Source of the DNA: Egibacteraceae bacterium
GTDB lineage: Bacteria; Actinomycetota; Nitriliruptoria; Euzebyales; Egibacteraceae
Length of the DNA stretch: 32,000 nucleotides
Assembly: GCA_040905805.1 (NCBI GenBank)
Contig: JBBDQS010000048.1
Span: forward strand, 1 to 32,000
Reading direction: 5' to 3'
Positions 425 to 30,095 of this stretch are shown here, one piece after another. Made by a program: the position numbers and the translations under genes. The notes below the pieces were generated by a model. It was not told the origin of the DNA and made no database searches. It was given only the letters and a program-made list of their open reading frames with translations. Numbering within the stretch: the stretch's first letter is position 1; every line of letters begins with the position of its first letter.

Positions 425-1195
425 ATGAAGCTGTCAGGTCGGGTCGCCCTGGTCACCGGGGCATCGCGTGGGATCGGGCGGGCCATCGCGTCGGCGCTCG
501 CGGCGGAGGGTGCGGCGGTGGCGGTCAACTACCGCTCCCGTCAATCCGAGGCCGACGAGGTCGTGCGCGAGATCGAGGATGGCGGAGGCAAGGCGATCGC
601 GGTCGGCGGCGACGTGGCCGACTACGAGGCGGCCGGCCGCATCGTCGAGGAGACCATCGGCGGGCTCGGCGGGTTGCACGTGCTCGTGAACAACGCGGGA
701 ATCGCTCGCGACGCGCTGATCTTCAACATGGAGCCCGAGGACTGGCTCGACGTCATGAAGGTCAACTTCGGCGGCGTGTTCAACTGCACGAAGGCCGTCA
801 TGTCCCACTTCATGGCGCAGCGAGACGGCGTCATCGTCAACATCTCCTCGGTCATGGGCGAACGCGGATGGACCGGCGAGTCGAACTACGCCGCCTCCAA
901 AGCCGCGGTCAACGCTTTCACCCGGTGCGCCTCCCTCGAGCTCGCGCGCTTCGGCATCCGCGTGAACGCGGTCCTGCCCGGCTTCGCCCCCACGGACCTC
1001 GTCGCCGGCCTCGTCGAGCGTGACGGCGGCAAGGGCATCAAGAAGCAGCTGCCGATGCGCGCGCTCGGCAAGGTCGAGGAGATCGCCAACGTCGCGACCT
1101 TCCTCGCCGGACCCGACTCGAGCTACATGACCGGCACCCTGGTCCCCGTCGACGGTGGCGCACAGGCGGTGCTGGGCCTCGGCCGGCCGGACTAG
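425..1195 (+). CDS. fabG: SDR-family 3-oxoacyl-ACP reductase (ketoreductase, FabG-like)
   Basis: ATG at 425 lies in frame inside track ORF 272..1195 and is preceded by GAGGGG..GGAG. Motifs: Rossmann 'VALVTGASRGIGRAIA', 'NNAG', and catalytic 'SNYAASKAAV' (YxxxK). The 51 upstream codons of the ORF are Arg/Gly junk. Confidence 0.9.
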   Translation: MKLSGRVALVTGASRGIGRAIASALAAEGAAVAVNYRSRQSEADEVVREIEDGGGKAIAVGGDVADYEAAGRIVEETIGGLGGLHVLVNNAGIARDALIFNMEPEDWLDVMKVNFGGVFNCTKAVMSHFMAQRDGVIVNISSVMGERGWTGESNYAASKAAVNAFTRCASLELARFGIRVNAVLPGFAPTDLVAGLVERDGGKGIKKQLPMRALGKVEEIANVATFLAGPDSSYMTGTLVPVDGGAQAVLGLGRPD

Positions 1196-1236
1196 GTTCC
1201 TCCGCAGGAGCTCCGCTACAGGAAAGGATCCGAGAA

Positions 1237-1647
1237 ATGACGCAGTTGACGAAAGACAAGATCAGCAGCGAGGTGCAGACGGCCGTGGCCGAGGCGCTCG
1301 CCCTCGAGGACGACGAGGTGACACTGGACGCCACCCTGATGGACGAGCTCGGCGCCGAGTCGATCGACCTGCTCGACATCCTGTTCCGGCTCGAACGGTC
1401 CCTCGGTGTGAAGATCCAGGCCTCGGACCTGGCCGACCACCTCCAGGGCGGCATCCCCGACGAGGAGTTCTCCGACGAGAACGAGATCATCAACGATCGC
1501 GGTCTGGCCCAGCTGAAGACCGCCATGCCGCAGATCGACACCGACGAGCTGTCGGGCAACCTCAAGGCCGAGGACGTCATCAACCTGTTCACGGTCCAGA
1601 ACCTGGTGGACATGGTCGCGGCCCGTGCCGAAACCTCCGCCGGCTGA
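1237..1647 (+). CDS. Acyl carrier protein, unusually long (136 aa)
   Basis: ATG at 1237 with GGAAAGGA 9 nt upstream. The protein is acidic and has the phosphopantetheine-attachment motif 'LGAESIDLLDILFRLE'. A helix-IV-like 'VINLFTVQNLVDMV' appears only after an insert of about 45-50 aa. Confidence 0.85.
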   Translation: MTQLTKDKISSEVQTAVAEALALEDDEVTLDATLMDELGAESIDLLDILFRLERSLGVKIQASDLADHLQGGIPDEEFSDENEIINDRGLAQLKTAMPQIDTDELSGNLKAEDVINLFTVQNLVDMVAARAETSAG

Positions 1648-2041
1648 GGGCGAGCAGGCCAGTCCGACCATTCGGGTCGGCATCGACATCGTCAGCATCG
1701 GTCGGGTCGAGCGCTTGCTGAGCGAGCAGCCCGCCGTCACGCAACGGGTGTTCACCGATCGCGAGCTCGAAGGCCTCGGCGGTCGTCGGCGGGTCCAACG
1801 GTTGGCCGGGCGCTTCGCCGCGAAGGAGGCGGTGCTGAAGGCCTTCGGCACCGGCCTCGGCCCGAGGATGAACTGGACCGACGTGGAGATCACGAGCGAA
1901 CCGGGTGGCCGACCCAGGGTGCGCCTGGGCGGGGCGGTGGCGGCGGCGGCACGACGCGGCGGGCTCGCGTCCGTGGACGTCTCCGTGGCGCACACCGGCG
2001 ATCTCGCCGTCGCCCACGCCATCGCGGTCTACCCGCGCTGA
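1625..2041 (+). CDS. acpS: Holo-ACP synthase (AcpS-type 4'-phosphopantetheinyl transferase)
   Basis: 'IRVGIDIVSIGRVERLL' and 'RFAAKEAVLKAFG' are typical AcpS motifs. GTG 1625 is the only canonical in-frame start upstream of GIDIV, and it overlaps the ACP gene by 23 nt. Confidence 0.8.
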   Translation: MPKPPPAEGEQASPTIRVGIDIVSIGRVERLLSEQPAVTQRVFTDRELEGLGGRRRVQRLAGRFAAKEAVLKAFGTGLGPRMNWTDVEITSEPGGRPRVRLGGAVAAAARRGGLASVDVSVAHTGDLAVAHAIAVYPR

Positions 2042-2057
2042 ATCGGGAGGCAAGAGG

Positions 2058-2510
2058 ATGCGCTTTCATCTCATCGACCGGATCGACAGCTACGAGCCGT
2101 CGACCGTCGTGCGGGCACGCAAGGTGACGTCGGTGAGCGAGTCGTACTGGGAGGACTCGCCGGCGGGCCCGATCATGCCCCCGCCGCTCGTGCTCGAGGC
2201 GCTGTGCCAGGCGGGGACCTGGCTGATCATGATCTCCACCGACACGCGCAAGCGCGCCGCGTTGCTCTCCGTCGCGTCGGTGTCCTTCCTCGCCGACGTG
2301 GAACCCGGAGATGTGATCGACCTCGTCGGCACGGTCGAGTCCATGACCGACGAGATGGCGGTTCTCTCGGGGACGGCCACCGTCGGGGACACCGCGGTGA
2401 TGGAGGCCCGCGACATCATGTGCGCGCTGATCGACGCCGAGGACCTCCAGGGCATCGAGGACACCAACCGCCTGCGCGACACGCTCCTGCGCGACGTGGT
2501 GGCGACATGA
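2058..2510 (+). CDS. Hot-dog fold FabZ/FabA-like dehydratase subunit lacking the catalytic His (Glu retained)
   Basis: ATG 2058 lies inside track ORF 1905..2510, with GGGAGG 8-13 nt upstream. The core 'FHLIDRI...WEDSPAGPIMPPPLVLEALCQAG' aligns to the FabZ motif HFPxxPhMPGVLxxEAxAQ but has no His. Confidence 0.75.
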   Translation: MRFHLIDRIDSYEPSTVVRARKVTSVSESYWEDSPAGPIMPPPLVLEALCQAGTWLIMISTDTRKRAALLSVASVSFLADVEPGDVIDLVGTVESMTDEMAVLSGTATVGDTAVMEARDIMCALIDAEDLQGIEDTNRLRDTLLRDVVAT

Positions 2511-3778
2511 AGCGGGTGGCGATCACCGGGATCGGTGCGGTCACGCCGCTCGGCAACGACGCCAAGACGACCTGGGCGGGGCTGATCGAGGGTCGCAGCG
2601 GCGTCACCCGGATCAGCACGTTCGACCCCGAGGGCTTCCCCGTGCGCATCGCCGGGACCGTGACCGACTTCGAGCTGGACCCGAGCTACGCCGACGAGAG
2701 CATGCGACGCCACCTGTCCCGCTCGGCGTCGTTCGGCCTGGCGGCCGCCGCCGAGGCGCTCGACTCCGCCGGGCTCGCCGACGCCTACCCGCCCGCGAGC
2801 CGCGGCGTGTCGGTCGCCAGCAGCGTGGGCCGACCGGAGCTGCAAGAGGTCAGCGACATCCTCGAGGAGTACGCCCGCACCGAGGGACGGCGGGTCCCGA
2901 GACAGTCGCCGTCCAGCGTCTTGCTGCGCGACCAGAACGTGGGCGCCCTGGCCATCAGCCGCTACGGTGACTGCCAGGGTCCGATGGTGAACATCAGCAC
3001 GGCCTGCGCCGGCGCGGTGCACGCGATCGGCGAGGGCTTCCGCCTGGTCCAGGAGGGCGACGCGAGCATGGTCGTCACCGGTGGGTACGACGCCCTGACG
3101 ACGTGGATGGACGTGTTGGGCTTCGCCCTCCTGGGGGCCCTGACGACCGAGTATGAGGACGAGCCGGAGCGCGCGTCACGGCCCTTCAGCGCCGACCGGG
3201 CCGGCTTCGTGATCGGCGAGGGGTCCGTCATGGTCGTGCTCGAGGACCTCGACGGCGCCCGCGGGCGGGGCGCACCCATCCTCGCCGAGCTCGCCGGATA
3301 CGGCAGCAGCATGAACGCCTACCGGATCACCGACGCGCCGTCGGACGGCAAGGGACCGGACGCCGCCATGGCCGCGGCCCTGCGGGAGTCGGGTCTCGAC
3401 GCCACCGACATCCACTACATCGCCGGTCACGGCACGGGAACCGCGGGCAACGACCTCTGCGAGACCGTCGCGATCAAGACGGTCTTCGGGCCGCACGCGT
3501 ACGACCTGGCGATCAGCTCCACGAAGTCGATGGCGGGCCACCTCACGTCTGGGGCCGGCGGTCTCGGGCTCCTGGCGACGATGGGCGCGGTGCGCGAACA
3601 CGTCGTCCCCCCGACGATCAACCTGGAGACGCCCGACCCGAAGCTGGACCTCGACTACGTCCCGAACACGGCCAGGCCGATGCGCGTCGACGCGGCGCTC
3701 GTCAACGCCTTCGCCTTCGGCGGCACCAACGCGGCGCTGGTCGTCCGCCGGTCCGACCCCGACGACGTGGAAGGTTGA
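2507..3778 (+). CDS. Beta-ketoacyl-ACP synthase (KS, FabF/KAS-II-like), catalytically complete
   Basis: ATG 2507 overlaps the upstream stop (ATGA). N-terminus is 'MKRVAITGIGAVTPLG'. The Cys-His-His triad is present in 'NISTACAGAVHA', 'AGHGTGTAGND' and 'TKSMAGHLTSGAG'; 'FAFGGTNAALVV' is also present. Confidence 0.9.
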   Translation: MKRVAITGIGAVTPLGNDAKTTWAGLIEGRSGVTRISTFDPEGFPVRIAGTVTDFELDPSYADESMRRHLSRSASFGLAAAAEALDSAGLADAYPPASRGVSVASSVGRPELQEVSDILEEYARTEGRRVPRQSPSSVLLRDQNVGALAISRYGDCQGPMVNISTACAGAVHAIGEGFRLVQEGDASMVVTGGYDALTTWMDVLGFALLGALTTEYEDEPERASRPFSADRAGFVIGEGSVMVVLEDLDGARGRGAPILAELAGYGSSMNAYRITDAPSDGKGPDAAMAAALRESGLDATDIHYIAGHGTGTAGNDLCETVAIKTVFGPHAYDLAISSTKSMAGHLTSGAGGLGLLATMGAVREHVVPPTINLETPDPKLDLDYVPNTARPMRVDAALVNAFAFGGTNAALVVRRSDPDDVEG

Positions 3779-4185
3779 GTCCCGTGCCTGCGCCCCTGGT
3801 CGTCCTCGACCGCGTCCTGAGCCTCGAGCGCGGGAAGCGCGGCAGCGCCATCCGCAACGTGCCGAACAGCCTGATTATCTTCGACACCCATTTCCCCCGC
3901 TTCCCGGTCCTGCCCGGCGTGCTGATTCTCGGCAGCATGGGCCTGCTCGCCGCGAAGGTGCTCGACGAGGGGGACGGGTGGTGGCGTCTCGCCCAGGCCG
4001 AGCGCGTGCGCTTCCGCCACTTCGTGCAACCCGGTGACCAGCTCGCCCTGTCCATCGAGGTCAAGGACGCCACGGCGTCCACGGCGACCTGCACGGCGAC
4101 CGCCAGCGTCGACGGCAAACCCGTCACGACGGTCGGCCGGCTGCGGATGGCCCGGGCGGAGCACGCCGAAGGGGGTGCTCGGTGA
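3775..4185 (+). CDS. FabZ-like hot-dog dehydratase subunit with catalytic His but Gly at the Glu position
   Basis: 'LVVLDRVLSLE...FDTHFPRFPVLPGVLILGSMGLLA' matches the E. coli FabZ core 'FLLVDRVL...[20 protein letters not shown]' closely. The start is TTG 3775 (overlapping the KS stop) or GTG 3784. Confidence 0.8.
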   Translation: MSPVPAPLVVLDRVLSLERGKRGSAIRNVPNSLIIFDTHFPRFPVLPGVLILGSMGLLAAKVLDEGDGWWRLAQAERVRFRHFVQPGDQLALSIEVKDATASTATCTATASVDGKPVTTVGRLRMARAEHAEGGAR

Positions 4186-5456
4186 GAGACGTCGTCGTCA
4201 CGGGCGTCGGCGTGCTCACCGCCCTCGGCGTCGGCGCGGAGGCGACGTGGAGCGGTCTCGTGGAGGGGCGCAGCGGGATCGGGCCGCTCGAAGGGTTCGA
4301 CGCGTCGACCCTGCACACGCGCATCGGTGCCGAGATTTCCGACTTCGACCCCACGGCGTTCGCCGAGCGGCGTTCGCTGCGGCTCATGACCCGCAACGAG
4401 CAGTTCGCCACCGCCGCCGCCAAGCTCGCCGTCGCGGACGCGGGGGCCGACCTGACCACCATCGACCCCTTGCGCACGGCGGCCTTCCTCGGTGGCAACA
4501 AGGAGATCTCCAACCCGATGAAGGTCGCCGACGCGATCCTCGCCTCACGCGGCCCCGACGGCGTGGCGACGATGGCCCGGCTGGCAACCGACGGTGTCAA
4601 GCAGTTCCACCCGTTGTTCTACGTCGAGGGCCTGCAGGCAGGGGCGCTGTTCTACGTCTCGGAGGCGTTCGGGATGAAGGGCGCCAACGCCTACTTCCAC
4701 GGCACCGCGGACTCGGGGATGACCGCGATCGGGCGGGCCTTCCGCGCCGTCCGCCGCGGCGAGGCGGACGTCGCCGTCGCCGGGGGGTTCGACGAAGCGG
4801 TCTCCTGGTGGTCGATGGCCAAGATGGACGGGCTCGGGGTGCTTTCCACCCGCAACGACCTCGGCGCCGAGGCCTTCCGGCCCTACGACCGCGACCGCAG
4901 CGGCTCGGTGCTCGGCGAGGGAGCGGCCGTCGTCGTGCTGGAGACCGCCGAGCAGGCCAAGGCCCGCGACGCCAACGTGTACGCCAAGGTCGTGGGCTTC
5001 GGCGGGGGCAACGACGCGGAAGGCCTGCTGACCCCCAATCCCGAAGGCCGTGGTCTGGTCAACGCGGTCCGTGCCGCCCTGCGCGACGCCGGCGACGACC
5101 TCGGCGCGATCGACTACGTGGCCACGCACGGGGCCGCGACCCGGCTGGGCGACCCGAGCGAGACGCTCGCCCTGCGCACGGCCCTCGGTGCGGCCGCAGA
5201 CGACGTGATGGCGAGCAGCATCAAGCCGGCCACCGGCCACCTCGTCGCGGCGGCCGGCGCACTCAACGTCGCCGTGGCGGCGCTGGCGGTCCGCCACGGT
5301 GTGGTGCCGCCGACGCTCAACCTCACGGACCCGGACCGCCACTGCGACCTCGACTGGGTCCCCGGGTCGGCGCGCGAGACCCCGGTCAACGGCGCCCTCG
5401 CGCTCGCGCGCGGCCTCGAGGGCCAGAACGTCGCGCTCGCCTTGCGGGCGGTGTGA
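4182..5456 (+). CDS. KS-like protein without active-site Cys (chain-length-factor-like partner; Asp at the Cys position)
   Basis: GTG 4182 overlaps the upstream stop (GTGA). It has the KS fold ('MRDVVVTGVGVLTALG', 'RPYDRDRSGSVLGEGAAVVVLE'). The nucleophile site reads 'FHGTADSGMTAIG', while both His are kept ('ATHGAAT', 'KPATGHLVAAAG'). Confidence 0.85.
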   Translation: MRDVVVTGVGVLTALGVGAEATWSGLVEGRSGIGPLEGFDASTLHTRIGAEISDFDPTAFAERRSLRLMTRNEQFATAAAKLAVADAGADLTTIDPLRTAAFLGGNKEISNPMKVADAILASRGPDGVATMARLATDGVKQFHPLFYVEGLQAGALFYVSEAFGMKGANAYFHGTADSGMTAIGRAFRAVRRGEADVAVAGGFDEAVSWWSMAKMDGLGVLSTRNDLGAEAFRPYDRDRSGSVLGEGAAVVVLETAEQAKARDANVYAKVVGFGGGNDAEGLLTPNPEGRGLVNAVRAALRDAGDDLGAIDYVATHGAATRLGDPSETLALRTALGAAADDVMASSIKPATGHLVAAAGALNVAVAALAVRHGVVPPTLNLTDPDRHCDLDWVPGSARETPVNGALALARGLEGQNVALALRAV

Positions 5457-5480
5457 CAACCACAGACAGGAGGAGATCCG

Positions 5481-7823: not shown

Positions 7824-7832
7824 ACCTCGGCG

Positions 7833-9380
7833 GTGACGACCACGGATCCCACCGCAGACACCTACGACGTCATCGTCGTGGGCGCGGGGCTCGGCGGGCT
7901 GTCGGCCGCCGCGCTCCTGGCCAAGGCCGGGCAGCACGTGCTCGTCGTCGAGCGCCAGGACGGGCCGGGTGGGTACGCGCATACGTTCCGCCGCGACGGG
8001 CGGGTCTTCGACCCGGCCATCCACGTCCTCGTGGAGGGCAAGGAGGGACGCAGCGTCGACCTGCTGCTGCGCCACCTCGAGGTGCGGGAGCGCTGCGACC
8101 TCGTCCGTCTTCCCGACCTCTACCGGACGGCCTTCCCGGACTTCGAGCTGACGGTCCCCTCCGGTCACGACGCGATCATCGACGCGCACGTCAGCCGCTT
8201 CCCCCACGAGGCGGATGGGATCCGGGCGCTCTACGATCTGCACGCCCGCTTCTTCCAGGACGCCACGCACCTGGCCATGCAGGTCTCCCTGCGCAATCTC
8301 GACGACATGGTCCGGGACTTCCCGACGTTCTTCCGTTACCGCAACGCCACCGTCGCCGACGTCCTCGACGAGTGCCTGCAGGATCCCCGCGCCAAGGCGG
8401 TGTGCTCGGCGATGTGGCCGTACCTGGGGCTGCCGCCGTCACGCCTGTCGTTCTTCGTCTTCTCCCAGGTCACCAGCGTGGTGGTCGACGGGGGCTCCTA
8501 CTACAGCCGCGGTAGCTTCCAGCGCGTGGCGGACGCGCTCGTCGAGGCACTCGCCCGCGACGGCGGGGAGCTCGCCGTCGGCACCGAGGTGACCAGCATC
8601 GTCGTGGAGGGGGGCCAGGCGCGCGGTGTGCGGCTGGCTGACGGCCGGCAGCTGCGTGCCCCCGTCGTCATCTCCAACGCCGACGCACGGCTCACGTTCG
8701 AGCAGCTGGTCGGTCCCGAGCACCTGCCGGCGCGGTTCGTCAGGCGTCTCCAGCGCTTCGAGCCCGCCCTGTCGGCCTACGTGCTCTACGCCGCCACCGA
8801 CATGGACCTGGCCGCCGCCGGCGCGGTGCACGAGACCTTCGTCTACCGCCACTGGGACCACGACGACACCTACCGCGACATCCTTGCCGGCGAGCCGGGT
8901 GGGATGTGGGTGAACGTCCCCACGATCGTGGACCCCTCCCTGGCGCCGCCCGGCGAGCACCTGCTCATCCTCACCGCCCTCGCCCCCTACGAGCTCGAGC
9001 GTCCCTGGGACCAGGAGAAGGATCGCTTCAGCGAGTCGGTGATGGCCGATCTCGACCGTCTCTACCCGGGGGTCTGCGGGCACATCACCTTCGCCGAGTC
9101 CGCGACGCCGGAGACGCTCCAGCGGCGCACCCTGAACCACCGCGGCGCAATCTACGGCTGGGCGGTGACGCCCCAGCAGGTGGGCAGCAAGCGCCTCCAC
9201 CACGACACCCCCATCGACGGGCTCTACCTGTCGGGGCACTGGACCGAGGAGGGTCCGAGCTCCTTCCGCGTCCTGCTGTCGGGGGTCATGACAGCCCGGA
9301 TGGTGGCGGCACACCGGGGGCTTGCCCACGACGCGGTCCCGACCTTCCGTCCCACCGACCTCCCCGACCTGGTCGGGTAG
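7833..9380 (+). CDS. Phytoene-desaturase-family (CrtI-like) FAD/NAD(P)-dependent oxidoreductase
   Basis: GTG start. The N-terminal dinucleotide fold 'YDVIVVGAGLGGLSAAALLAKAGQHVLVVERQDGPGGYA' and a C-terminal 'LYLSGHWTEEGPS' FAD motif match the layout typical of the CrtI/amine-oxidase family. Confidence 0.8.
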   Translation: MTTTDPTADTYDVIVVGAGLGGLSAAALLAKAGQHVLVVERQDGPGGYAHTFRRDGRVFDPAIHVLVEGKEGRSVDLLLRHLEVRERCDLVRLPDLYRTAFPDFELTVPSGHDAIIDAHVSRFPHEADGIRALYDLHARFFQDATHLAMQVSLRNLDDMVRDFPTFFRYRNATVADVLDECLQDPRAKAVCSAMWPYLGLPPSRLSFFVFSQVTSVVVDGGSYYSRGSFQRVADALVEALARDGGELAVGTEVTSIVVEGGQARGVRLADGRQLRAPVVISNADARLTFEQLVGPEHLPARFVRRLQRFEPALSAYVLYAATDMDLAAAGAVHETFVYRHWDHDDTYRDILAGEPGGMWVNVPTIVDPSLAPPGEHLLILTALAPYELERPWDQEKDRFSESVMADLDRLYPGVCGHITFAESATPETLQRRTLNHRGAIYGWAVTPQQVGSKRLHHDTPIDGLYLSGHWTEEGPSSFRVLLSGVMTARMVAAHRGLAHDAVPTFRPTDLPDLVG

Positions 9381-9395
9381 GAAGGAGCGCCCAAC

Positions 9396-9926
9396 GTGAC
9401 CACCGCCGACGAGCACAAGCAGATCGTCCTGCGCTACATCGAGGAGGTCTGGAACAAGAACGACCCCTCGAGGTTCGACGAGTTCGTCGCCCCCGACGCG
9501 GTCTTCCACGACCTCGTCCGGGAGGGCAGCTTCCCGCCCGGCAGGGCCGCCGCGCAGGAGAACATGCGCCGGTTCCAGAAGGCATTCGGGCCGGACATGA
9601 CGATGGAGATCCACGACGTCATCGCGGAGGGCGACCGGGTCGTGTTCCGCTTCACGTCCGACGCCGTGCACCGCGGTGAGTTCCAGGGATTCCCCCCGAC
9701 CTACCGTTCGGGGACGGTGAACGGCCTCGTCGTCGTGCGCATGGAGGACGGGCGCATCGCCGAGGGCTGGGCGGAGCTCGACCAGATGGGCGTGGCGCGC
9801 CAGCTCGGTCTCATGCCCGGGCGGATGCCCCGTCCGCTGGCCCGGGCCATGGTGGCCGGTATCCGCCTCCGCGACCGGCTGGCCCGGCGCCGCTCGTCGG
9901 GGGACCGACCCGAGGCGACCCGGTAG
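9396..9926 (+). CDS. SnoaL-like (NTF2-fold, ester-cyclase-type) protein with a basic C-terminal tail
   Basis: GAAGGAG lies 9 nt upstream of GTG 9396. 'HKQIVLRYIEEVWNKNDPSRFDEFVAPDAVFHD' and 'DVIAEGDRVVFRFT...RMEDGRIAEGW' are typical of SnoaL-like polyketide-cyclase-family proteins. It is a paralog of the 12337-12843 product. Confidence 0.7.
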   Translation: MTTADEHKQIVLRYIEEVWNKNDPSRFDEFVAPDAVFHDLVREGSFPPGRAAAQENMRRFQKAFGPDMTMEIHDVIAEGDRVVFRFTSDAVHRGEFQGFPPTYRSGTVNGLVVVRMEDGRIAEGWAELDQMGVARQLGLMPGRMPRPLARAMVAGIRLRDRLARRRSSGDRPEATR

Positions 9927-9959
9927 CGACGTCAACCGAATCGAGTCGCGGGAGCAGCC

Positions 9960-10403
9960 ATGCCCAGCGCAGCGGACCGTGTCAGGAACGTCTTTCCCTC
10001 GCTCATCCTGCGCTCGCCCCTGCACCCGATCATGAGCGGTCGCTATGCGATCATCGAGTTCACCGGCCGCAAGAGCGGTCGCCGCTACGCCACGCCGATC
10101 GCCTACGTCCGCGACGGCGACCGTGTCCTGCTGTCGACCGACTCGCCGTGGTGGCGCAACGTGGCCGGGGGTGCCCCGGTGCGCCTGCGCTTGCGGGGTC
10201 GCACCGTCGCGGGCACGGCGACGGCGATCACCGACCCCGAGGAGGCCGCGGCCATCATCCGCCGACTGCTCGACGCGATCCCCTCCTATGCCAAACCGGC
10301 GCATCTGGCCCGGGAGGGCGGGCGGGTGAGCGACGCGGAGGTCGCGCGCGGCGTGGCCGCGGGCCGGGTCGGCATCGAGGTCGTCCTCGAGGGGTCGCGG
10401 TGA
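9960..10403 (+). CDS. Deazaflavin (F420)-dependent nitroreductase-family / split-barrel oxidoreductase (DUF385-like)
   Basis: 'FTGRKSGRRYATPIAYVRDGDRVLLSTDSPWWRNV' resembles the GRKSG..tP...W(Y)RN signature of the F420H2-dependent quinone reductase family. GGGAG lies upstream of ATG 9960. Confidence 0.55.
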   Translation: MPSAADRVRNVFPSLILRSPLHPIMSGRYAIIEFTGRKSGRRYATPIAYVRDGDRVLLSTDSPWWRNVAGGAPVRLRLRGRTVAGTATAITDPEEAAAIIRRLLDAIPSYAKPAHLAREGGRVSDAEVARGVAAGRVGIEVVLEGSR

Positions 10404-10855
10404 TGCTCGTCGAGATCGCACTGGTGGCGACGATCGTGCTCGTCGGGGTGGTGGCCGGCAACGAGATCGGGACGCTCGTGGTCATCCACCCCGCCCTGGA
10501 CCGGGTTCCCTACGCGTCCGGGCGGCCCGCCGCCCAAGCGGTCGTCGCGCGCTTCGGGCGGGTCATGCCCGTGCTGATGCCGATCACGATCGCCGTGACG
10601 TTCGTCACGGCGTTGGTCCTCGACGGCACCCCATCCGTGCTGCTGCTCCTCGCCGGCGCGGCGCTGGTCGCGATGCTCATCGTGACCTTCGCCGGTCTCA
10701 TGCCGCTCAACACCAGCCAGCTCGGGGCTGATGAGACCACGCCGGCGGACGAGTGGTACGGCTGGCGTGCACGGTGGCTGCGGCTGCACGCCGTGCGGGT
10801 CGTCTGCGACCTGGCCGCGCTCGTCCTGGTCGCGGTGGCCGCCGTCGTCCGCTGA
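10403..10855 (+). CDS. Small 4-TM membrane protein, DUF1772 / anthrone-oxygenase-like
   Basis: ATG 10403 shares its A with the upstream TGA (TGATG). There are four hydrophobic segments, and the 'GLMPLNTSQL...WRARWLRLHAVRV' tail resembles DUF1772. The track ORF start at 10148 overlaps the previous gene and is rejected. Confidence 0.5.
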   Translation: MLVEIALVATIVLVGVVAGNEIGTLVVIHPALDRVPYASGRPAAQAVVARFGRVMPVLMPITIAVTFVTALVLDGTPSVLLLLAGAALVAMLIVTFAGLMPLNTSQLGADETTPADEWYGWRARWLRLHAVRVVCDLAALVLVAVAAVVR

Positions 10856-10926
10856 CGGTGCCGGCGGGTTAGACTCCAAGGCGCGAGAAGGGCGGTCGGC
10901 GTCGGGTGCCGGCGGGAGGGGGCTCC

Positions 10927-11157
10927 ATGGCAGGGACCAGGGTGCTCGTCGTCGGCGGCGGCCTCGGCGGTGTGGTCGCTGTCATCGCCCTCCGGCAGGC
11001 AGGGCTGGACGCCGTCGTGTTCGAAGCTGCCCGGTCGGTCGAGGACGTGCTGCGCCTGGCAGCCGAGTGCACGGGCTTCGAGGAAGACCGCAAGGGTGTC
11101 ACGGACATGGAGGCAGTGCCGGGCGCTCGTCCGGAAAGGGGTGGTGAGGTGACATGA
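10927..11157 (+). pseudogene. Remnant of an FAD-dependent monooxygenase (N-terminal Rossmann segment plus a short internal piece)
   Basis: 'TRVLVVGGGLGGVVAVIALRQAGLDAVVFE' parallels 'KRVLIIGGGIGGTAAGVALRQAGLDAQVFE' of the adjacent full-length gene. The ORF is only 76 codons. It retains GGGAGGGGG + ATG, and its stop overlaps the ATG at 11154. Confidence 0.6.
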
Positions 11158-12350
11158 CAACCAGCGCAAAGCGCGTGCTGATCATCGGCGGCGGCATCGG
11201 CGGGACCGCGGCAGGGGTGGCGCTGCGGCAGGCCGGGCTCGACGCGCAGGTGTTCGAACGGTCCCCTGATCTTGCCCGGACCCATGTCGGCGGTTGCTAC
11301 GTCCTGTGGTTCGCGGGCGTGATGTCGTTGTCCCAGCTCGGTCTCGCGGACAAGGTCCATGCGCGCGGGCACCCGGTCACGCGCTTCGAGATGTGCGGCG
11401 CGAACGCCCGCGTGCTGAGCGCCGCCGACGTCGGCGAGCACGGACAGTCGCTCGGGGTGATGCCGGTGGCGGTCCGCCGGGCCGACCTCCTCGGTGTGCT
11501 CACCGACGCGCTCGACAAGGACGCGCTGCACCTCGGCGCGACCTTCCGGGATGTGGTGCAGGACTCGGTCACGGTGACCGCCACGTTCACCGACGGACGC
11601 CGGGAGAGCGGCGACGTCCTCGTCGGCTCCGACGGGCTCGACTCGTCCGTGCGCGCCCACCTGCACGGTCTCGAGCCGGCCCGACATCCCGGGTACGCCC
11701 ACTGGTCGGCGATCGCGGACGGCGACGGCGGCGCGCCTCCAGGGGTGTTCCGCGTCCTGCACGGCGACGGCGCCCGGTTCGCGTTCTTCCACATCGGTGA
11801 CGGGCGGGTGTGCTGGTGGTGCGTCCGCAACGCCCCGCCGGGACCGGCAGGTGACCGCTACGGCGACTACGACGAGCTGACCTCGTTCTTCCGCGGGTGG
11901 GACCCGACAGCCGCCGCGCTCCTGGCGGCGACCCCCCCGAAGGCCATCCACCGGCGTGACACGCTCGACCGGCCGCCGCTGCGCCGCTGGGGTCGCGGCA
12001 GGGTCACGTTGCTCGGCGACGCCGCGCACGCCATGACCTTCGACCTCGGCCAGGGCGCCGGCACGTCCCTGACGGACGCGGTCACCCTGGCCGCCCACCT
12101 GTCCGACAAGCCCGTGCTCGCCGGGCTGCGCACCTACGAGGACCTGCGGCGCTGGGTCACCACACCGCTGGTGCGGATGTCGCGGCTGGTCGGCGCCGCC
12201 TCCTCGTGGGACTGGCCGTTGGGCCCCAAGCTGAACGAGGCCTTCGTGGCCGCAGGCCGGCGGGGAGGGACGGTCGGGGCCCTGAAGCGCGACCTGCGGG
12301 GGCACCCGGCGATGCTGACCGAACGAGGAGGCGAACGTGCCGACACCTGA
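11154..12350 (+). CDS. FAD-dependent aromatic-ring monooxygenase (group A flavoprotein hydroxylase, UbiH/salicylate-hydroxylase-like)
   Basis: Motifs present: GxGxxG 'VLIIGGGIGGTAAG', 'VLVGSDGLDSSVR' (DG motif) and 'LLGDAAHAMTFDLGQGAGTSLTDA' (GD motif). Confidence 0.85.
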   Translation: MTTSAKRVLIIGGGIGGTAAGVALRQAGLDAQVFERSPDLARTHVGGCYVLWFAGVMSLSQLGLADKVHARGHPVTRFEMCGANARVLSAADVGEHGQSLGVMPVAVRRADLLGVLTDALDKDALHLGATFRDVVQDSVTVTATFTDGRRESGDVLVGSDGLDSSVRAHLHGLEPARHPGYAHWSAIADGDGGAPPGVFRVLHGDGARFAFFHIGDGRVCWWCVRNAPPGPAGDRYGDYDELTSFFRGWDPTAAALLAATPPKAIHRRDTLDRPPLRRWGRGRVTLLGDAAHAMTFDLGQGAGTSLTDAVTLAAHLSDKPVLAGLRTYEDLRRWVTTPLVRMSRLVGAASSWDWPLGPKLNEAFVAAGRRGGTVGALKRDLRGHPAMLTERGGERADT

Positions 12351-12843
12351 GGAGAACAAGGCGGTCATCCGCCGCTACCTCGAAGAGGCCTGGAACCGGG
12401 GCGACTGGACGGTCGCGGAGGAGGTCGTCGCCGAGGACGCGGTCTTCCACGACCAGGTCCGGGAGGGCGAGCTGCCACCCGGCCGGGAGGGCGTGCGCGT
12501 CGCCATGGAGCGGGTCCGCACCGGGATGCCCGACATGACCATGGACATCCACGAGGTCGTCGCCGAAGGCGACATGGTCGTCGTGCGTTGGAGCGCGACG
12601 GCAACCCAGGCGGGGCCCTTCAACGGCATCCCGCCGACCGACCGTGTCGCCACGCTGCACGCCATCAGCATGGTCCGCATGAAGGACGGACGCATCGTGG
12701 AGGGCTGGCAGGAGGCGGACAGGATGGGGCTGGCCCAACAGCTCGGGCTCATGCCCAAGGGGCAGATGCCCCGCCCGGTGGCCGGTGCGCTGGCCTTCGG
12801 GATCCGCTGCAAGGACCGCCTGGCCCGGCGGCGCCGGCGCTAG
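12337..12843 (+). CDS. SnoaL-like (NTF2-fold) protein with a basic C-terminal tail, paralog of 9396-9926
   Basis: GAGGAGG lies upstream of GTG 12337, which overlaps the monooxygenase gene by 14 nt. 'NKAVIRRYLEEAWNRGDW...AVFHD' and 'VVAEGDMVVVRWS...MKDGRIVEGW' are present. The tail is 'QLGLMPKGQMPRPVAGALAFGIRCKDRLARRRRR'. Confidence 0.7.
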   Translation: MPTPEENKAVIRRYLEEAWNRGDWTVAEEVVAEDAVFHDQVREGELPPGREGVRVAMERVRTGMPDMTMDIHEVVAEGDMVVVRWSATATQAGPFNGIPPTDRVATLHAISMVRMKDGRIVEGWQEADRMGLAQQLGLMPKGQMPRPVAGALAFGIRCKDRLARRRRR

Positions 12844-12844
12844 C

Positions 12845-13927
12845 TCATGCGGGGGTGGCGGCGGTCCAGTCGACGACGACGCCTGCGTAGATCCACTTGG
12901 TCGCCTCCACACCGATGAGCACCACCCGCTGTTCGGGTTGGATCATGCCCCTGCGCCACGCGTGGTCGAGGAACAGCGGCACCGCCGCGGAGCCGCAAGC
13001 CCCGGTCATGGCGAGGTTGTCGAAGATCTTGCCCTCCATCGCCTTCCACTCGTCGGTCAGCAGACCGTGCTCGGCAAGCGAGTCGAGCATCCACCCGACG
13101 TTGCCCTCGGGGATCAGGCACCAGTCGACGCTCTCGGCGGCGATGCCGCTGCGGCCGAGGGTGTCCGCGAGCGAATCCACCACCATCTGCGGGGTGAAGT
13201 CGCCGGCGCCGACCACGTCGACCTGGAGGTCGACCAGGCGCTTCCTGCTCAGCTGCTCGTGGATCGGCGCGTGCGTGCCGCCACCGATCGAGTGGATCCC
13301 CGCCTTCCTGGTGCCACCGATGGCGCACTGCGCCGAGCCGATGATCCCGCCCTGGTCGCTGTCGGTGGCCTGTAGCACGAAGGCTCCGGCCCCGTCCCCG
13401 AACATGTACAGGGGCAGCCGGTCACGCATGCGGATCTTGTTCGGGTCCTTGCCCACGAACACCGGAGCCATGACCGGCGAGATCGCCTCGCTGCCCACGA
13501 CGAGGGCGAACTCGTGGTCACCGCGCTCCAGCATCATCCGCGCGATGTCGAGCCCCTGGACACCGCCCGCGCCCCCGGACCGCAGCTCCATGGTGGCGCA
13601 GCGCTCGAGACCGAGCCGCTCCTGCAGCAGGTTCACACACGCGGGCAGGTGGTACTCGGGGGTCCCGGTGGACTGGATCATCAGGCCGAGCTGACCCGCT
13701 TCGACCCCGGCGGTCTCCAAGGCCCTGACCGTCGCCTTGTAGGCCATGTCGGTGTTGCTCTCGTGGTGCTCGCCGGTCTCGGGGTCGATCATCCAGTACC
13801 GCTGCTGGATCGAGATGCCCTCCTGCACGTCGGGGGAGAGCGACCCGACCAACCGCTCGATCTGGTCGTTGTCGATCGGGTCACCGGGCTGGTAACCCCC
13901 CGTGCCGATGATGTGCACCCTGCCCAT
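12845..13927 (-). CDS. KAS-III (FabH)-fold protein lacking the canonical Cys-His-Asn triad
   Basis: By eye it is collinear with E. coli FabH ('FGDGAGAFVL', 'LVVGSEAIS', 'SAAVPLFLD'). The three catalytic positions read Gly ('ELRSGGAGGVQGL'), Pro/Glu ('DWCLIPEGNVGW') and Ala ('MTGACGSAAVP'). Confidence 0.8.
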   Translation of the reverse strand: MGRVHIIGTGGYQPGDPIDNDQIERLVGSLSPDVQEGISIQQRYWMIDPETGEHHESNTDMAYKATVRALETAGVEAGQLGLMIQSTGTPEYHLPACVNLLQERLGLERCATMELRSGGAGGVQGLDIARMMLERGDHEFALVVGSEAISPVMAPVFVGKDPNKIRMRDRLPLYMFGDGAGAFVLQATDSDQGGIIGSAQCAIGGTRKAGIHSIGGGTHAPIHEQLSRKRLVDLQVDVVGAGDFTPQMVVDSLADTLGRSGIAAESVDWCLIPEGNVGWMLDSLAEHGLLTDEWKAMEGKIFDNLAMTGACGSAAVPLFLDHAWRRGMIQPEQRVVLIGVEATKWIYAGVVVDWTAATPA

Positions 13928-14111
13928 GCTGCCCGCTTTCGCTCAAAGGCCCGGCGGCCATGTTCCCCCTCCGCCTCATGAGGGTCAAGGCCCATCCGTT
14001 CCGTCGCAGCCCGTAGACGGGCGTCGCGGCCGGGTGTAGGTTCCGGTGGTTGGGGCCGGGGGACTGTCGCACGGTGATGGGCGGCCCTGGGGCGAGGGAA
14101 AGGTGGGGCAC

Positions 14112-14600
14112 ATGGCTGTGCAACAGGCGCCAGACTTCACGATCGGCCACCTCGAAGGTCATACGGTGAGCCTGAGCGACCACCCGGGGAAGAAGGTGGT
14201 GATGTTCGCGGCGCGCAACAGCGCTGACCAGGCGAAGCAGGCGACCCAGGCGATCCGCCAGCGCTACGACGCCGAGGAGTTGCCGGTCCTGCTGATCGTC
14301 GACGTCAGCAGCCTCCCGCGGGTGATGCATCGTGTCGCCAAGTCGCAGCTGAAGAAGGGCTACGCCGAGGCCGTCGAGATGGCGAAGGCCGACTACGCGC
14401 AGCAGGGGAAGGCCTTTCCCGCGGATGCGTCCAAGGTCGTGGTCATGCTGCCGGACTACGACGGCTCGGTCACGGCCGGCTTCGACGTGGGCGACGTCGA
14501 CAAGGCGGCGGTCGCGGTGCTCGTGGACGAGGGCGGCAAGGTGCTGGGCAGCGCGTCAGGCCCCGGGGCCGGCGAGCAGATCCTTCAGCTGCTCGGCTGA
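14112..14600 (+). CDS. Thioredoxin-fold (redoxin/AhpC-TSA-like) protein with no cysteine
   Basis: ATG 14112 lies inside track ORF 14046..14600, after GGGAAAGGTGGGG. 'APDFTIGHLEGHTVSLSDHPGKKVVMF' is the usual redoxin N-terminus. The following CxxC/TxxC position reads 'AARNSADQ', and the whole protein has no Cys. Confidence 0.5.
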   Translation: MAVQQAPDFTIGHLEGHTVSLSDHPGKKVVMFAARNSADQAKQATQAIRQRYDAEELPVLLIVDVSSLPRVMHRVAKSQLKKGYAEAVEMAKADYAQQGKAFPADASKVVVMLPDYDGSVTAGFDVGDVDKAAVAVLVDEGGKVLGSASGPGAGEQILQLLG

Positions 14601-14603
14601 CCG

Positions 14604-14645
14604 CCGGTCGCCGTCGACCGAGGTTGTCCCGGTCGCCGTCGACCG
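14604..14645. promoter_or_regulatory. Two perfect copies of CCGGTCGCCGTCGACCG (each an internal CGGTCG-N4-CGACCG palindrome), 25 bp apart
   Basis: The copies at 14604-14620 and 14629-14645 are identical. They lie in the 90-bp gap between the redoxin-fold stop (14600) and the halogenase-like ATG (14691). I propose them as a candidate operator for a dimeric regulator. Confidence 0.35.
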
Positions 14646-14690
14646 GCAGTCCGGGCTCTGGTACCTCCGGCGGACGGGGAGGAGGAAGAC

Positions 14691-16116: not shown

Positions 16117-16968
16117 TCAGCCCTCGACGGCGGCGTCGAGGTGGTTGAGTGCGAAGAACTCGTCGGTGACGAACAGTGCCTCCCGGATCTGCTCCCTCGT
16201 GCTGCGGCTGTGCAGGGCCGTCAGCTCCGCCCGCCCGTCGGGATAGCGCATGATCGCCTTCACGGTCGACGCGTCGACCCGCAGCTCGTTCCAGGACGGG
16301 GGCACGAGACCGCGGAGCCGCGCCGTCGCCGCAGTCGAGCAGTTGGCCACCAGCGTCCCCCCGAGCGACCAGAAGAAGGGGACGTGGCGGTGGCCGGTGA
16401 GGACGATGTCCACCTCGAGGTCGCTGATCAGGGTGAGCACGTCCCCGGCGTCGTTGACGACGCTCATCTCACGACCCGAGCCGGGGATGGGCAGGACGTG
16501 ATGGTGCAGGAGCAGGATCTTGAGATCGTCGGGCCGGTCGAACTGCTCGCGGATCCACACGTACCACTCACGGCCGATATGGCCCTCCTCGAGGTCAGGT
16601 TGCGAGGAGTCGAGCCCCACCACGGTGATGCCGGACAGGCGGAGGCGCTCGCTCCGCAGCGGTTCGAGCTCCAGCCGCCGGCGCAGGAAGCGGCCACCGA
16701 AGTGGCGGAGGAAGTGGACGTAGCCGACGTTGCGTGAATCGTGGTTGCCCGGGACCACCACCGTGGGGGCCGTCAGCTGTGCCAGCCAGGAGACCGCCTC
16801 CTCGTACTCCCATGCGTAGCCGCTGGCCGTGAGGTCGCCGGCGACGAGCACGACGTCGGGTTCACTGCTGTTGACCTGGGCGACGACGTCGGCCAGCAGC
16901 CGGGGGCGGAACGTCGGCTCGCCGCAGTGGATGCTGCCCAGGTGGGCGATCCGCACCGGCTCGATCAT
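16117..16968 (-). CDS. Metallophosphoesterase (calcineurin-like), motif-I Asp replaced by Ser
   Basis: ATG at 16968 lies inside track ORF 16117..17211, with GGAGAGGAG upstream. Motifs: 'HLGSIHCG' (expected DxH), 'VAGDLT', 'VPGNHD', 'LLLHHHV', 'TGHRHVP'. Confidence 0.85.
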   Translation of the reverse strand: MIEPVRIAHLGSIHCGEPTFRPRLLADVVAQVNSSEPDVVLVAGDLTASGYAWEYEEAVSWLAQLTAPTVVVPGNHDSRNVGYVHFLRHFGGRFLRRRLELEPLRSERLRLSGITVVGLDSSQPDLEEGHIGREWYVWIREQFDRPDDLKILLLHHHVLPIPGSGREMSVVNDAGDVLTLISDLEVDIVLTGHRHVPFFWSLGGTLVANCSTAATARLRGLVPPSWNELRVDASTVKAIMRYPDGRAELTALHSRSTREQIREALFVTDEFFALNHLDAAVEG

Positions 16969-16994
16969 TGTGGGCTCCTCTCCCGCACCCGGCG

Positions 16995-17840: not shown

Positions 17841-17924
17841 GTGGCCCTGCCCGCGCGCTCCGTCGGTGTGGGGCATGCACCCCGGATGATCCCGTATTCT
17901 CGCACCGAGAGGGAGGTGGAGGCC

Positions 17925-27812: not shown

Positions 27813-27845
27813 GGATACCCTCCTGCGCCAGCCGGGTTCCGGGAG

Positions 27846-30094: not shown

Positions 30095-30095
30095 G

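Follow-up and report, generated by a model that had tools for sequence, protein, structure and literature searches.

The stretch of DNA analysed here, referred to below as the window, comprises 32,000 nucleotides of a metagenome-assembled genome (MAG) of an Egibacteraceae bacterium (class Nitriliruptoria, phylum Actinomycetota) and carries a gene cluster built around ketosynthase (KS), ketoreductase (KR), dehydratase (DH) and acyl carrier protein (ACP) genes. At a window G+C content of about 70%, genes were called from third-position GC (GC3) and frame profiles together with open reading frame (ORF) calling, and were then translated. The calls place 15 ORFs, all on the plus strand, between positions 425 and 12843, which bears out the 15 co-directional genes of an earlier, sequence-only reading of this DNA, although the thirteenth proves to be a gene remnant. 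We number these ORFs g1 to g15 in their order and refer to the convergent KASIII-like gene that follows them as g16. The protein accessions for the cluster genes are consecutive (MEX2619667 to MEX2619682), and the same proteins are carried by a second MAG of the same species.

1-424, no strand: non-coding leader, the right-hand part of a divergent intergenic region of about 515 bp
425-1195, plus strand: g1, KR of 256 residues, a FabG-like short-chain dehydrogenase/reductase (Pfam adh_short_C2 2e-62, KR 1e-18)
1237-1647, plus strand: g2, ACP of 136 residues (Pfam PP-binding over residues 12-68 only, model positions 2-57 of 67)
1625-2041, plus strand: g3, dedicated AcpS-type phosphopantetheinyl transferase (Pfam ACPS 3e-19; NCBIfam holo-ACP synthase models)
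2058-2510, plus strand: g4, hot-dog DH subunit a, FabZ-like (Pfam FabA 6e-8; Asp33 in place of the catalytic His, Glu47 present)
2507-3778, plus strand: g5, stand-alone catalytic KS (Pfam ketoacyl-synt N and C; Cys167, His308, Lys340, His345)
3775-4185, plus strand: g6, hot-dog DH subunit b, FabZ-like (Pfam FabA 2.5e-15; His39 present, Gly53 in place of Glu)
4182-5456, plus strand: g7, Cys-less KS partner resembling a chain-length factor (CLF) (Pfam KS N and C; His316, Lys348, His353 present)
5481-7823, plus strand: g8, KS-CLF fusion of 780 residues (two KS N and C domain pairs in Pfam)
7833-9380, plus strand: g9, CrtI/carotenoid-isomerase-like flavoprotein of 515 residues (Pfam Amino_oxidase 3e-24)
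9396-9926, plus strand: g10, SnoaL/NTF2-like protein 1 (Pfam SnoaL 5.5e-31)
9960-10403, plus strand: g11, deazaflavin (F420)-dependent nitroreductase/quinone-reductase-like protein (Pfam F420H2_quin_red 2e-9)
10403-10855, plus strand: g12, DUF1772/anthrone-oxygenase-like membrane protein (Pfam Anthrone_oxy 2.5e-10)
10906-11157, plus strand: g13 (ORF 13), 83 codons, remnant of a second FAD monooxygenase (Rossmann N-terminus only)
11154-12350, plus strand: g14, class A flavoprotein monooxygenase of the aromatic-hydroxylase type, 398 residues (Pfam FAD_binding_3 9e-19)
12337-12843, plus strand: g15, SnoaL/NTF2-like protein 2 (Pfam SnoaL 3.5e-35)
12845-13927, minus strand: g16, KASIII-like protein with no Cys-His-Asn triad (Pfam ACP_syn_III N and C)

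The start/stop overlaps that chain the operon all read as first described (ATGA at 2507, GTGA at 4182, TGATG at 10403, ATGA at 11154 and 14 nt at 12337), and a further one, TTGA, lies at 3775, with GTG at 3784 as a possible alternative start of g6. A single base, 12844, separates the stop codons of g15 and g16, in line with the convergent arrangement and the 1-nt distance reported before. Pfam and residue alignments likewise agree on the proposed core inventory of one KR, one ACP, one AcpS, two hot-dog DH-like proteins, two catalytic KS domains and two Cys-less ones, and Pfam also assigns the CrtI/amine-oxidase-like, two SnoaL-like, F420H2_quin_red-like, Anthrone_oxy/DUF1772, FAD_binding_3 and KASIII-like proteins listed above. 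The leader of about 420 bp said to precede the first gene is indeed free of convincing coding signal over positions 1-424, where we found no consensus promoter- or terminator-like site and no Rfam match; a riboswitch or other RNA element was rejected on these results. Finally, Pfam identifies no enoyl reductase (ER), malonyl transacylase, thioesterase or aromatase/cyclase (ARO/CYC) in any called gene of the window. This confirms the gaps noted earlier, except that the "missing thioesterase" is an edge effect, because an alpha/beta-hydrolase gene adjoins the cluster just outside the window: in the sister MAG (L165), which is 99.75% identical to the window over 11.2 kb, some 92 nt lie between the end of this divergent gene and window position 1, and its product is 77% and 54% identical to the hydrolase encoded next after the KASIII-like gene in two related clusters.

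The four KS domains fall into two catalytic and two degenerate ones. The Cys-His-Lys-His set of g5 is kept in 23/23 orthologues, and that of the N-terminal half of g8 (Cys167, His300, Lys333 and His338) in 52/52. In g7 the motif G-T-A-D-S-G stands in place of T-A-C-A-S-G; the Cys column is ambiguous by one residue (Ala176 or Asp177), and an acidic residue is found at or next to it in 40 of the 41 orthologues, Asp here and mostly Glu elsewhere. The C-terminal half of g8 is degenerate throughout, with His573 at the Cys column followed by Ser699, Lys728 and Glu733 (MAFFT alignment). Across the family, as read from a 30-sequence alignment and from residue counts over the orthologues, the His of this half at the Cys column never varies, the first His is replaced by Ser, Asn or Ala, and the second usually by Glu and in a few cases by Asp. 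AlphaFold models g8 as two thiolase-fold halves (pLDDT 90, pTM 0.93) and thus predicts, with high confidence, an intramolecular KS-CLF pair, whose best whole-chain match in the PDB is the KS-CLF didomain of PfaC (6RIW; TMq 0.82 over 894 columns at 18% identity). Among the top structural matches only 6RIW covers both halves, the rest being single FabF proteins aligned to one half. From these residues we read the four domains as two elongation units, namely g5 with its Cys-less partner g7 and the fused KS-CLF g8.

By score, the KS domains lie closest to FabF. In a PDB sequence search g5 reaches 318 bits against FabF, 246 against the actinorhodin KS and below 176 against Iga11; the corresponding values are 306, 211 and 208 bits for g8 (whole protein, with matches in the N-terminal half) and 263, 216 and 172 bits for g7. 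On the fabF equivalog model g5 scores 413.7 bits, under the cutoff of 493.75, and it passes the KAS II subfamily model. In a neighbour-joining tree of 137 sequences, with weak deep nodes and no reference highly reducing type II KS among them, the KS types group separately, one clade per type, and all lie outside a clade of 52 FabF-like sequences taken from the other loci retrieved. The g8 N-half family has 100% bootstrap support in this tree. Strict monophyly of the g5 family was rejected, with a bootstrap of 14/100 and the KS of more distant fused-KS-CLF loci nesting nearby.

The KR g1 is 68-82% identical to the KR of the family loci and scores 255 bits on the FabG equivalog model, below its 298-bit cutoff. 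The ACP g2 contains an insertion of about 45 residues between the helix II/III region and the last helix, and this long form is conserved, with orthologues of 131-137 residues across the family and the Ser42 motif E-S-I/L in 26/26 of them. The AcpS-type transferase g3, a gene found in 13 family loci, can, to judge from its family assignment, activate this unusually long carrier. The two hot-dog subunits were aligned to an E. coli FabZ sequence that is consistent with the established His54/Glu68 numbering. At the His54 column g4 has Asp, and in 22 of 23 orthologues the position is D, E, G, R, T or Y; at the Glu68 column Glu is found in g4 and in all 23. In g6-type proteins His is kept in 32/32 and Gly replaces Glu in 28/32, with Asp at the Glu position in Streptomyces and Kutzneria. 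By this alignment g4 and g6 hold complementary halves of a FabZ active site, Glu47 in the former and His39 in the latter. Since the FabZ site is composed of a His from one subunit and a Glu from the other, a putative g4/g6 heterodimer would have exactly one complete site.

A comparable loss of catalytic residues marks the KASIII-like protein. Residue alignment to FabH 4RYB and to 5BY7 places Gly119, Pro273 and Ala310 at the Cys, His and Asn positions of g16. Wherever the His column was read across the family it holds Pro, and the Asn is mostly lost, with Ala in all but a few loci and N kept in three distant ones. The Cys is present in most loci, and Gly takes its place in a sub-clade (63-67% identity) to which both the window and the Streptomyces locus L169 belong. 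The two subtypes were noted over the window and loci L098-L101, L108, L114, L123, L144 and L169. Because the residues for decarboxylative condensation are lost, g16 should be unable to prime by condensation; judged by the same columns, no KASIII-like member of the family can catalyse this reaction, and in the window's Gly-type protein acyl-enzyme formation would be impossible as well. With 67% identity to the Streptomyces KASIII-like protein versus 51% to that of the cluster with the closest KS-CLF, g16 further suggests mosaic evolution of the cluster.

More than 20 independent loci, drawn from Solirubrobacterales, Streptosporangiaceae, Streptomyces, Kutzneria and soil metagenomes, show the same gene order, and the arrangement is therefore not a chance assembly of genes. 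The syntenic core reads KR, ACP, (AcpS), DH, KS, DH, Cys-less KS and KS-CLF, with the KASIII-like gene elsewhere in the locus. Our census, an alignment-based metagenome scan followed by inspection of gene neighbourhoods, comprises 61 family loci, of which 19 reach 12 kb or more; the Streptomyces and Kutzneria loci (L168-L170) are additional. A scan of species-representative genomes with exact g8 peptides, which is no census, gave one close relative (L001) among the matches listed, many of which are FabF. The g8 fusion has more than 120 full-length homologue clusters at the 90% level, 765-812 residues long and 62-72% identical, mostly from soil metagenomes and from MAGs of Solirubrobacteraceae and Thermoleophilaceae, with one Streptosporangiaceae isolate. 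The g5-type KS occurs in cultured Streptomyces, Kutzneria viridogrisea, Jiangella, Haloactinopolyspora, Phytoactinopolyspora, Amycolatopsis and Nakamurella; among cultured actinomycetes, the neighbourhoods inspected are those of one Streptomyces and one Kutzneria genome.

These two neighbourhoods contain both the core and the accessory genes. The Kutzneria locus (L170) is ordered ACP, DH, KS, DH, CLF, KS-CLF, KR, CrtI-like, SnoaL, SnoaL, cytochrome P450 (P450), P450 and KASIII-like. In Streptomyces sp. FXJ1.4098 (L169), whose core proteins are 49-70% identical to those of the window, the order is CrtI-like, P450, P450, SnoaL, an unknown gene and MMPL, then regulators, followed by AcpS, DH, KS, DH, CLF, KS, CLF, KR, ACP, flavin reductase and acyltransferase. 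Here the KS-CLF unit is split into two genes (13177-15484; 444 and 289 residues), and either the fusion is a variable trait within the family or the L169 record is frameshifted. The KS-CLF of L001, a Solirubrobacterales MAG, matches in four pieces in different frames (10001-12357); these breaks are probably assembly or sequencing frameshifts, and the record is unfit for residue-level conclusions. The recurrent gene families of 33 family loci include no ER-like one, and none was seen in any family-typed locus, while a malonyl transacylase is present in six family loci. On this comparative evidence, we regard the locus as a member of a conserved and widespread actinobacterial cluster family with no characterised member found. 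The sequence-only reading had likewise failed to match the gene order to a characterised cluster, and literature searches returned none: full-text searches yielded no paper on this gene ensemble and no described product for the family, though the subscription literature may hold one.

The tailoring genes, which had been singled out as an unusual set, turn out to be typical of the family in which they recur. A CrtI-like gene is found in about half of the larger family loci; in Kutzneria it occurs together with two SnoaL-like genes, two oxygenase genes and the KASIII-like gene, and in Streptomyces with a SnoaL-like gene, P450s and an MMPL exporter. The window's CrtI-like flavoprotein g9 is about equally similar to the crtI_fam model (188 bits, cutoff 238) and to the carotenoid isomerase model (184 bits), remaining under both cutoffs. 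It scores 102 bits against CrtI (4DGK), and its homologues in family clusters are 46-53% identical, with up to three copies in L098/L099. An RPE65 carotenoid-cleavage-type oxygenase (Pfam 406 bits) lies beside the same core in L098 (15108-16550) and L100. The two SnoaL-like proteins g10 and g15 are 54% identical to one another; both stay far below the 200-bit cutoff of the SnoaL methyl-ester-cyclase model, with only 29 bits for g10, and their nearest solved relatives are, with the scores for g15, 8YSB, labelled an ester cyclase (80 bits), and IdmH of indanomycin biosynthesis (6HNN, 73 bits), which we take to be a proposed cyclase with a polyene substrate.

The remaining tailoring candidates are redox proteins. 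For g11, TIGR00026 gives 41.8 bits, below the 46.35-bit cutoff, and family locus L144 encodes a 63%-identical homologue. The DUF1772 protein g12 has no homologue in the 61 family loci searched and is the only window gene without a counterpart there. The best model matches of the monooxygenase g14, HpxO and 3-hydroxybenzoate 6-monooxygenase, are sub-threshold, and homologues at 37-41% identity are encoded in nine family loci. Immediately upstream, ORF 13 has a weak coding signal and matches the N-terminus of g14 at 21/34 positions (62%, BLASTP). We consider it a remnant because only these 34 residues match g14 and because relatives L001 and L082 carry two tandem FAD_binding_3 genes at the ORF 13/g14 position. 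ORF 13 appears to be annotated by PGAP, judging from the consecutive accession numbers; its reading as a second ACP was rejected in view of the Rossmann-fold remnant.

Beyond g16 the window encodes an AhpC/TSA-like protein and continues with the following features.

14691-16109, plus strand: flavin-dependent halogenase-like gene with two frameshifts (GC3 frame switches; weak Trp_halogenase N-terminal match)
16117-16980 and 16995-17840, minus strand: two paralogous calcineurin-like metallophosphoesterases (Pfam Metallophos 1e-19 each)
17886-18383, plus strand: stand-alone cyclic-nucleotide-binding (cNMP-binding) protein of 165 residues (Pfam cNMP_binding 2e-21; ATG start; 165-residue call in L171)
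18411-18929, minus strand: flavin reductase of the HpaC/StyB type (Pfam Flavin_Reduct 1e-43; sub-threshold matches to flavin-reductase subunit models)
18929-19819, minus strand: PNPOx-like flavoprotein fused to a cNMP-binding domain (Pfam PNPOx_N and cNMP_binding)
19866-22340, minus strand: cNMP-FHA-ABC exporter, ATPase and ABC-2 membrane domain (Pfam)
22494-26084, minus strand: cNMP-FHA-MMPL (RND-type) exporter of 1196 residues (Pfam)

The cluster limits first proposed, 425-13927, are too narrow, as both the upstream hydrolase and several downstream genes have homologues in other family loci. The halogenase-like gene retains a GxGxxG start and a GYWVWLIQL motif and is split in the same way in an independent Logan assembly (L171); an intact 573-residue homologue adjoins a family cluster (L105, 5830-7551), and the window's copy is probably a pseudogene of an accessory tailoring enzyme. 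Homologues of the metallophosphoesterases (54-60% identity) lie beside core genes in L098/L099, the flavin reductase gene is also present in six family loci and in Streptomyces L169, and PNPOx-cNMP homologues (39-52% identity) are encoded in eight family loci. The cNMP-FHA-ABC exporter has a 66-67%-identical homologue in the closest related cluster (L083/L084), and MMPL genes without the cNMP module are part of the Streptomyces clusters L168 and L169. Because homologues of several of these genes sit inside other family clusters, we place the right-hand border near 26186, to which the cluster probably extends. Past this point, the minus-strand genes at 26238-31460 encode an L-lactate permease, a D-2-hydroxyacid (lactate) dehydrogenase (27846 to about 28850), an unassigned membrane protein of 415-420 residues and a multicopper oxidase with a cupredoxin domain; they have no homologues in the family loci, look unrelated and mark the border.

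Between 16117 and 26084 four proteins contain cNMP-binding domains: the stand-alone protein, the PNPOx fusion and the cNMP-FHA modules of the two exporters, which are 63% identical to each other over 257 residues. In relative L082 a Guanylate_cyc protein is encoded directly upstream of the KS-CLF gene. Together with the metallophosphoesterases, this set of domains and the L082 cyclase suggest that product export is gated by a cyclic nucleotide; the metallophosphoesterases match cyclic-nucleotide phosphodiesterase models weakly (35-37 bits), so that a cNMP role for them is speculation. A cinnamoyl peptide cluster linked to a nonribosomal peptide synthetase (NRPS) was considered for this region and rejected, the large downstream genes being the cNMP-FHA-ABC and -MMPL transporters.

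Grouped by gene content, the locus is best read as an uncharacterised branch of the highly reducing (HR) type II polyketide synthases (PKSs). This class is defined by a KS-CLF pair with KR and DH and without ER (PMC10698177), the combination that the sequence-only reading had invoked and that Pfam and the catalytic residues now support. The Cys-less pairing would be provided by the Cys-His-Lys-His sites of g5 and the g8 N-half on one side and by g7 and the g8 C-half on the other, the pairing within g8 being predicted; a discrete ACP, a KR and DH subunits are encoded in the cluster, and none of the ER families was found in the window's called genes. We hold an ER-less, HR-type-II-like architecture to be very probable. 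The idea that its product is a conjugated polyene chain draws mainly on the recurrence of carotenoid-type enzymes (CrtI-like and RPE65) with the core and on the absence of an ER. That the chemistry ends in cyclisation of such a polyene is a tentative suggestion from these gene families, with the balance tilting against it, and for the architecture and this chemistry taken as one statement the evidence comes down slightly in favour.

In the mechanism that we propose, malonyl units would be loaded onto the ACP by a transacylase encoded elsewhere in the genome, and a KS/CLF unit would initiate chains by decarboxylating malonyl-ACP, on the pattern of the anammox FabF heterodimer; FabF-derived KS/CLF-like heterodimers start chains in this way (bioRxiv 10.64898/2026.05.19.726425). 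Repeated rounds of condensation, ketoreduction and dehydration, the last by the DH heterodimer with its single site, would then yield a conjugated polyenoyl-ACP, and the two KS/CLF units may set two chain-length stages, as in youssoufene-type systems; in cinnamoyl-lipid systems two or three KS/CLF pairs act in stages (PMC9381841). The CrtI/CrtISO-like flavoprotein could isomerise the polyene, dehydrogenate it or do both, the two NTF2/SnoaL-like proteins could close a carbocycle, and the flavin monooxygenase could oxygenate the product, with the flavin reductase, the DUF1772 protein and the deazaflavin-type reductase possibly sharing in the redox chemistry. Release would fall to the alpha/beta-hydrolase encoded just upstream of the window, and export to the cNMP-FHA-ABC and cNMP-FHA-MMPL transporters under cyclic-nucleotide control.

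Several observations weigh against this interpretation. We infer polyene formation and cyclisation from gene content only, and an ER could act in trans, for example the housekeeping enoyl reductase; the gene list of the ladderane cluster is also without an ER (bioRxiv 10.64898/2026.05.19.726425). All four KS domains score higher with FabF than with the KS of the ishigamide, aryl-polyene or actinorhodin systems, and the deep nodes of the neighbour-joining tree are weak. Furthermore, g7 keeps its His-Lys-His residues, unlike Iga12 and the actinorhodin CLFs, and the mutated anammox FabF, too, differs from g7 in lacking the triad (both bioRxiv 10.64898/2026.05.19.726425), so that g7 may be something other than a passive chain-length factor. 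The Solirubrobacterales-type loci L001 and L082 lack CrtI-like and SnoaL-like genes, which are thus accessory rather than core, and in the window itself accessory genes are decaying, as seen in the monooxygenase remnant and the frameshifted halogenase-like gene.

The FabF-like character of the KS domains also fits a specialised envelope-lipid pathway, in which an unusual acyl chain would be partly reduced by the housekeeping ER, modified by the CrtI- and NTF2-like proteins and inserted into the envelope through the MMPL and ABC transporters, much like ladderane Cluster I. The core proteins are unusually conserved, with 52-72% identity across classes, MMPL-type and ABC exporters are linked to them, and ladderane Cluster I has counterparts to several parts of the locus, namely a special ACP, a homologue of FabZ, paired FabF proteins of which one is mutated, and a homologue of phytoene dehydrogenase (bioRxiv 10.64898/2026.05.19.726425). 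Nevertheless, the variable tailoring genes (P450s, SnoaL-like, FAD monooxygenases, halogenase-like and RPE65), the LuxR/TetR regulators and the patchy taxonomic distribution look more like secondary metabolism, and we consider such a pathway unlikely; it would differ from an HR type II PKS in its biological role and in the ER supplied in trans, the core enzymology being the same. A place in the cinnamoyl-lipid/o-dialkylbenzene branch (youssoufene, globisporamic acid and skyllamycin-type cinnamoyl), with isomerisation, 6-pi electrocyclisation and dehydrogenation to a benzene ring, would agree with two KS/CLF units, a KR, two DH and no ER (PMC9381841, PMC12532209); the CrtI-like flavoprotein could serve as the dehydrogenase, and the aromatic-hydroxylase-type and quinone-related tailoring enzymes would suit a benzenoid product. 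It is improbable all the same that the locus belongs there: the universal HCCA isomerase/GST-kappa isomerase (IPR014440) is encoded by no called gene of the window and its motifs occur in none of the six frames, the window has no NRPS and no adjacent LuxR pair, and no DsbA-like gene appears in the Pfam tables of the related loci.

Two further readings would make the locus a familiar one. SnoaL, Anthrone_oxy and FAD_binding_3 families are typical of anthracycline- and angucycline-type clusters, and an aromatic, non-reducing type II PKS with SnoaL-like, anthrone-oxygenase-like and FAD-monooxygenase tailoring of a polycyclic polyketide might account for them. We deem this highly improbable given that no ARO/CYC cyclase domain (SRPBCC/TcmN type) was found, that no Gln stands at or next to the Cys position (Ala/Asp in g7, His in the C-half of g8), and that two FabZ-like DH and a FabG-like KR lie inside the core; moreover, the KS score 306-318 bits with FabF as against 211-246 bits with the actinorhodin KS, the methyl-ester-cyclase model is missed by a wide margin (29 versus 200 bits), and the DUF1772 gene is unique to the window among the 61 family loci. 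The best family matches of the KS, KR, DH, ACP and AcpS proteins are Fab/Acp models, as would be expected of the organism's housekeeping type II fatty acid synthase operon. That role is excluded to near certainty by the inactive KASIII-like protein with its G/P/A triad, the missing FabD and ER, the inactivity of two of the four KS domains and the occurrence of the same cluster in Streptomyces, which has its own fab operon. Streptomyces indeed carries a separate fabD-fabH-acpP-fabF operon. The score of g5 under the FabF equivalog cutoff (413.7 versus 493.75 bits), the 136-residue ACP with its insertion and the position of the KS types in clades outside the 52-sequence FabF-like clade, with weak deep nodes, point the same way.

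Returning to the HR type II PKS reading, these enzymes form a class that is still young, and few types have been characterised (ishigamide, aryl polyenes, cinnamoyl/o-dialkylbenzene and the related cispentacin), and the locus would define a further type that is well conserved and widespread. It would also make several pieces of enzymology accessible to test: a free-standing KS-CLF didomain, otherwise known from polyunsaturated fatty acid (PUFA) megasynthases, a Cys-less partner with both catalytic His residues, half-site DH subunits and a non-condensing KASIII-like protein. Should cyclisation occur, the CrtI-like and SnoaL-like proteins are possible non-homologous replacements for the cinnamoyl isomerase and cyclase, and the cyclisation enzymology would not be homologous to that of the known cinnamoyl isomerase/cyclases (Kcn17-19 and YssX). 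More speculatively, and on present evidence doubtful, the family could provide Actinomycetota with a polyketide pathway to polyene lipids that resemble carotenoids or bear rings, a Gram-positive counterpart of the aryl polyenes with CrtI/CrtISO-like and SnoaL-like pericyclic cyclisation and cNMP-gated export. Since cultured Streptomyces and Kutzneria carry orthologous clusters, the product can be sought without culturing the organism behind the MAG.

Set against known systems, the locus shares features with each and, on its gene content, does not belong to the aryl polyene (APE), aromatic type II PKS, PUFA synthase or ladderane clusters. With APE clusters, which are likewise widespread and ER-less, it has in common a KS/CLF heterodimer, an additional KS-family protein, DH subunits in pairs, a KR, an MMPL/RND-type exporter and a thioesterase or hydrolase (partly after PMC8358021). 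It differs from them in that the window encodes no aryl-starter adenylating enzyme and no glycosyl- or acyltransferases, the exporters carry cNMP-FHA modules, and the host is actinobacterial whereas APE clusters are Gram-negative; matches to the ApeI-like Pfam model (18.9 bits against a required 28.5) and to the flexirubin FlxB KR model (212 bits against 340) stay under threshold. Ladderane Cluster I of anammox bacteria consists of amxACP, amxFabZ, amxFabF2/amxFabFmut, a phytoene dehydrogenase homologue and a cobalamin-dependent radical SAM protein (bioRxiv 10.64898/2026.05.19.726425), and the locus resembles it in its FabF-derived KS with a mutated partner, atypical ACP, FabZ-like DH, phytoene-dehydrogenase-like flavoprotein and lack of a cluster ER. 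Nonetheless, amxFabF2 (9S5H_B) scores 270-292 bits against g5 and g8, no higher than ordinary FabF (9S5H probably belongs with the preprint on the anammox FabF heterodimer, to judge by its molecule name and subject), Pfam finds no radical SAM domain in the window's called genes, and the locus has two KS/CLF units, a KR, SnoaL-like proteins and oxygenases that set it apart. The PfaC didomain (6RIW) shares with g8, as predicted, a KS and a CLF on one polypeptide in an intramolecular pseudo-dimer fold. PfaC, by contrast, belongs to the multidomain PfaA-D megasynthase, which has tandem ACPs, DH domains of its own and the ER on a separate protein, PfaD, while g8 is free-standing in a type II cluster. 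The PfaA model reaches 87 bits (cutoff 1010), and the two systems have in common only the fold of the KS-CLF didomain.

The likeness to the cinnamoyl, youssoufene and o-dialkylbenzene systems (ysf, gla, sky and kcn) extends to several KS/CLF pairs (g5 with g7 and the g8 fusion here), a KR, two DH, no ER and a logic, proposed here, of isomerisation, cyclisation and dehydrogenation after polyene formation (PMC9381841, PMC12532209, PMC9321520). A kinship with skyllamycin-type cinnamoyl pathways had been suggested for the locus; it stands as regards the KS/CLF, KR and DH proteins and the lack of an ER, and falls with the absence of the hallmark isomerase. The IPR014440 isomerase and its motifs are defined as a feature of cinnamoyl pathways (PMC12532209), and in the window neither PRxYFSLRSPYSW nor FGVPxF matches in the six-frame translations and no called gene has a DSBA-like domain; lacking this HCCA-isomerase/GST-kappa isomerase as well as an NRPS, the locus does not, by its gene complement, belong to the cinnamoyl/o-dialkylbenzene branch. 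The benzene-forming cyclases named for these systems are the Kcn17-18-19 complex and YssX (PMC9321520), and in the locus the parts of isomerase, cyclase and dehydrogenase may be played by the CrtI-like and SnoaL-like proteins. Finally, the ishigamide HR type II PKS (Iga11-Iga12) corresponds to the locus in its discrete KS with a Cys-less partner, its ACP, FabG-like KR and hot-dog DH, and its lack of an ER (PMC10698177). The locus differs from it in having two elongation units, of which one is fused into a single polypeptide, in a partner that retains His-Lys-His, in a DH that forms a split-site pair, in KS domains that are FabF-like (318/306 bits, with Iga11 at less than 176/208) and in tailoring enzymes of the carotenoid and NTF2 types.

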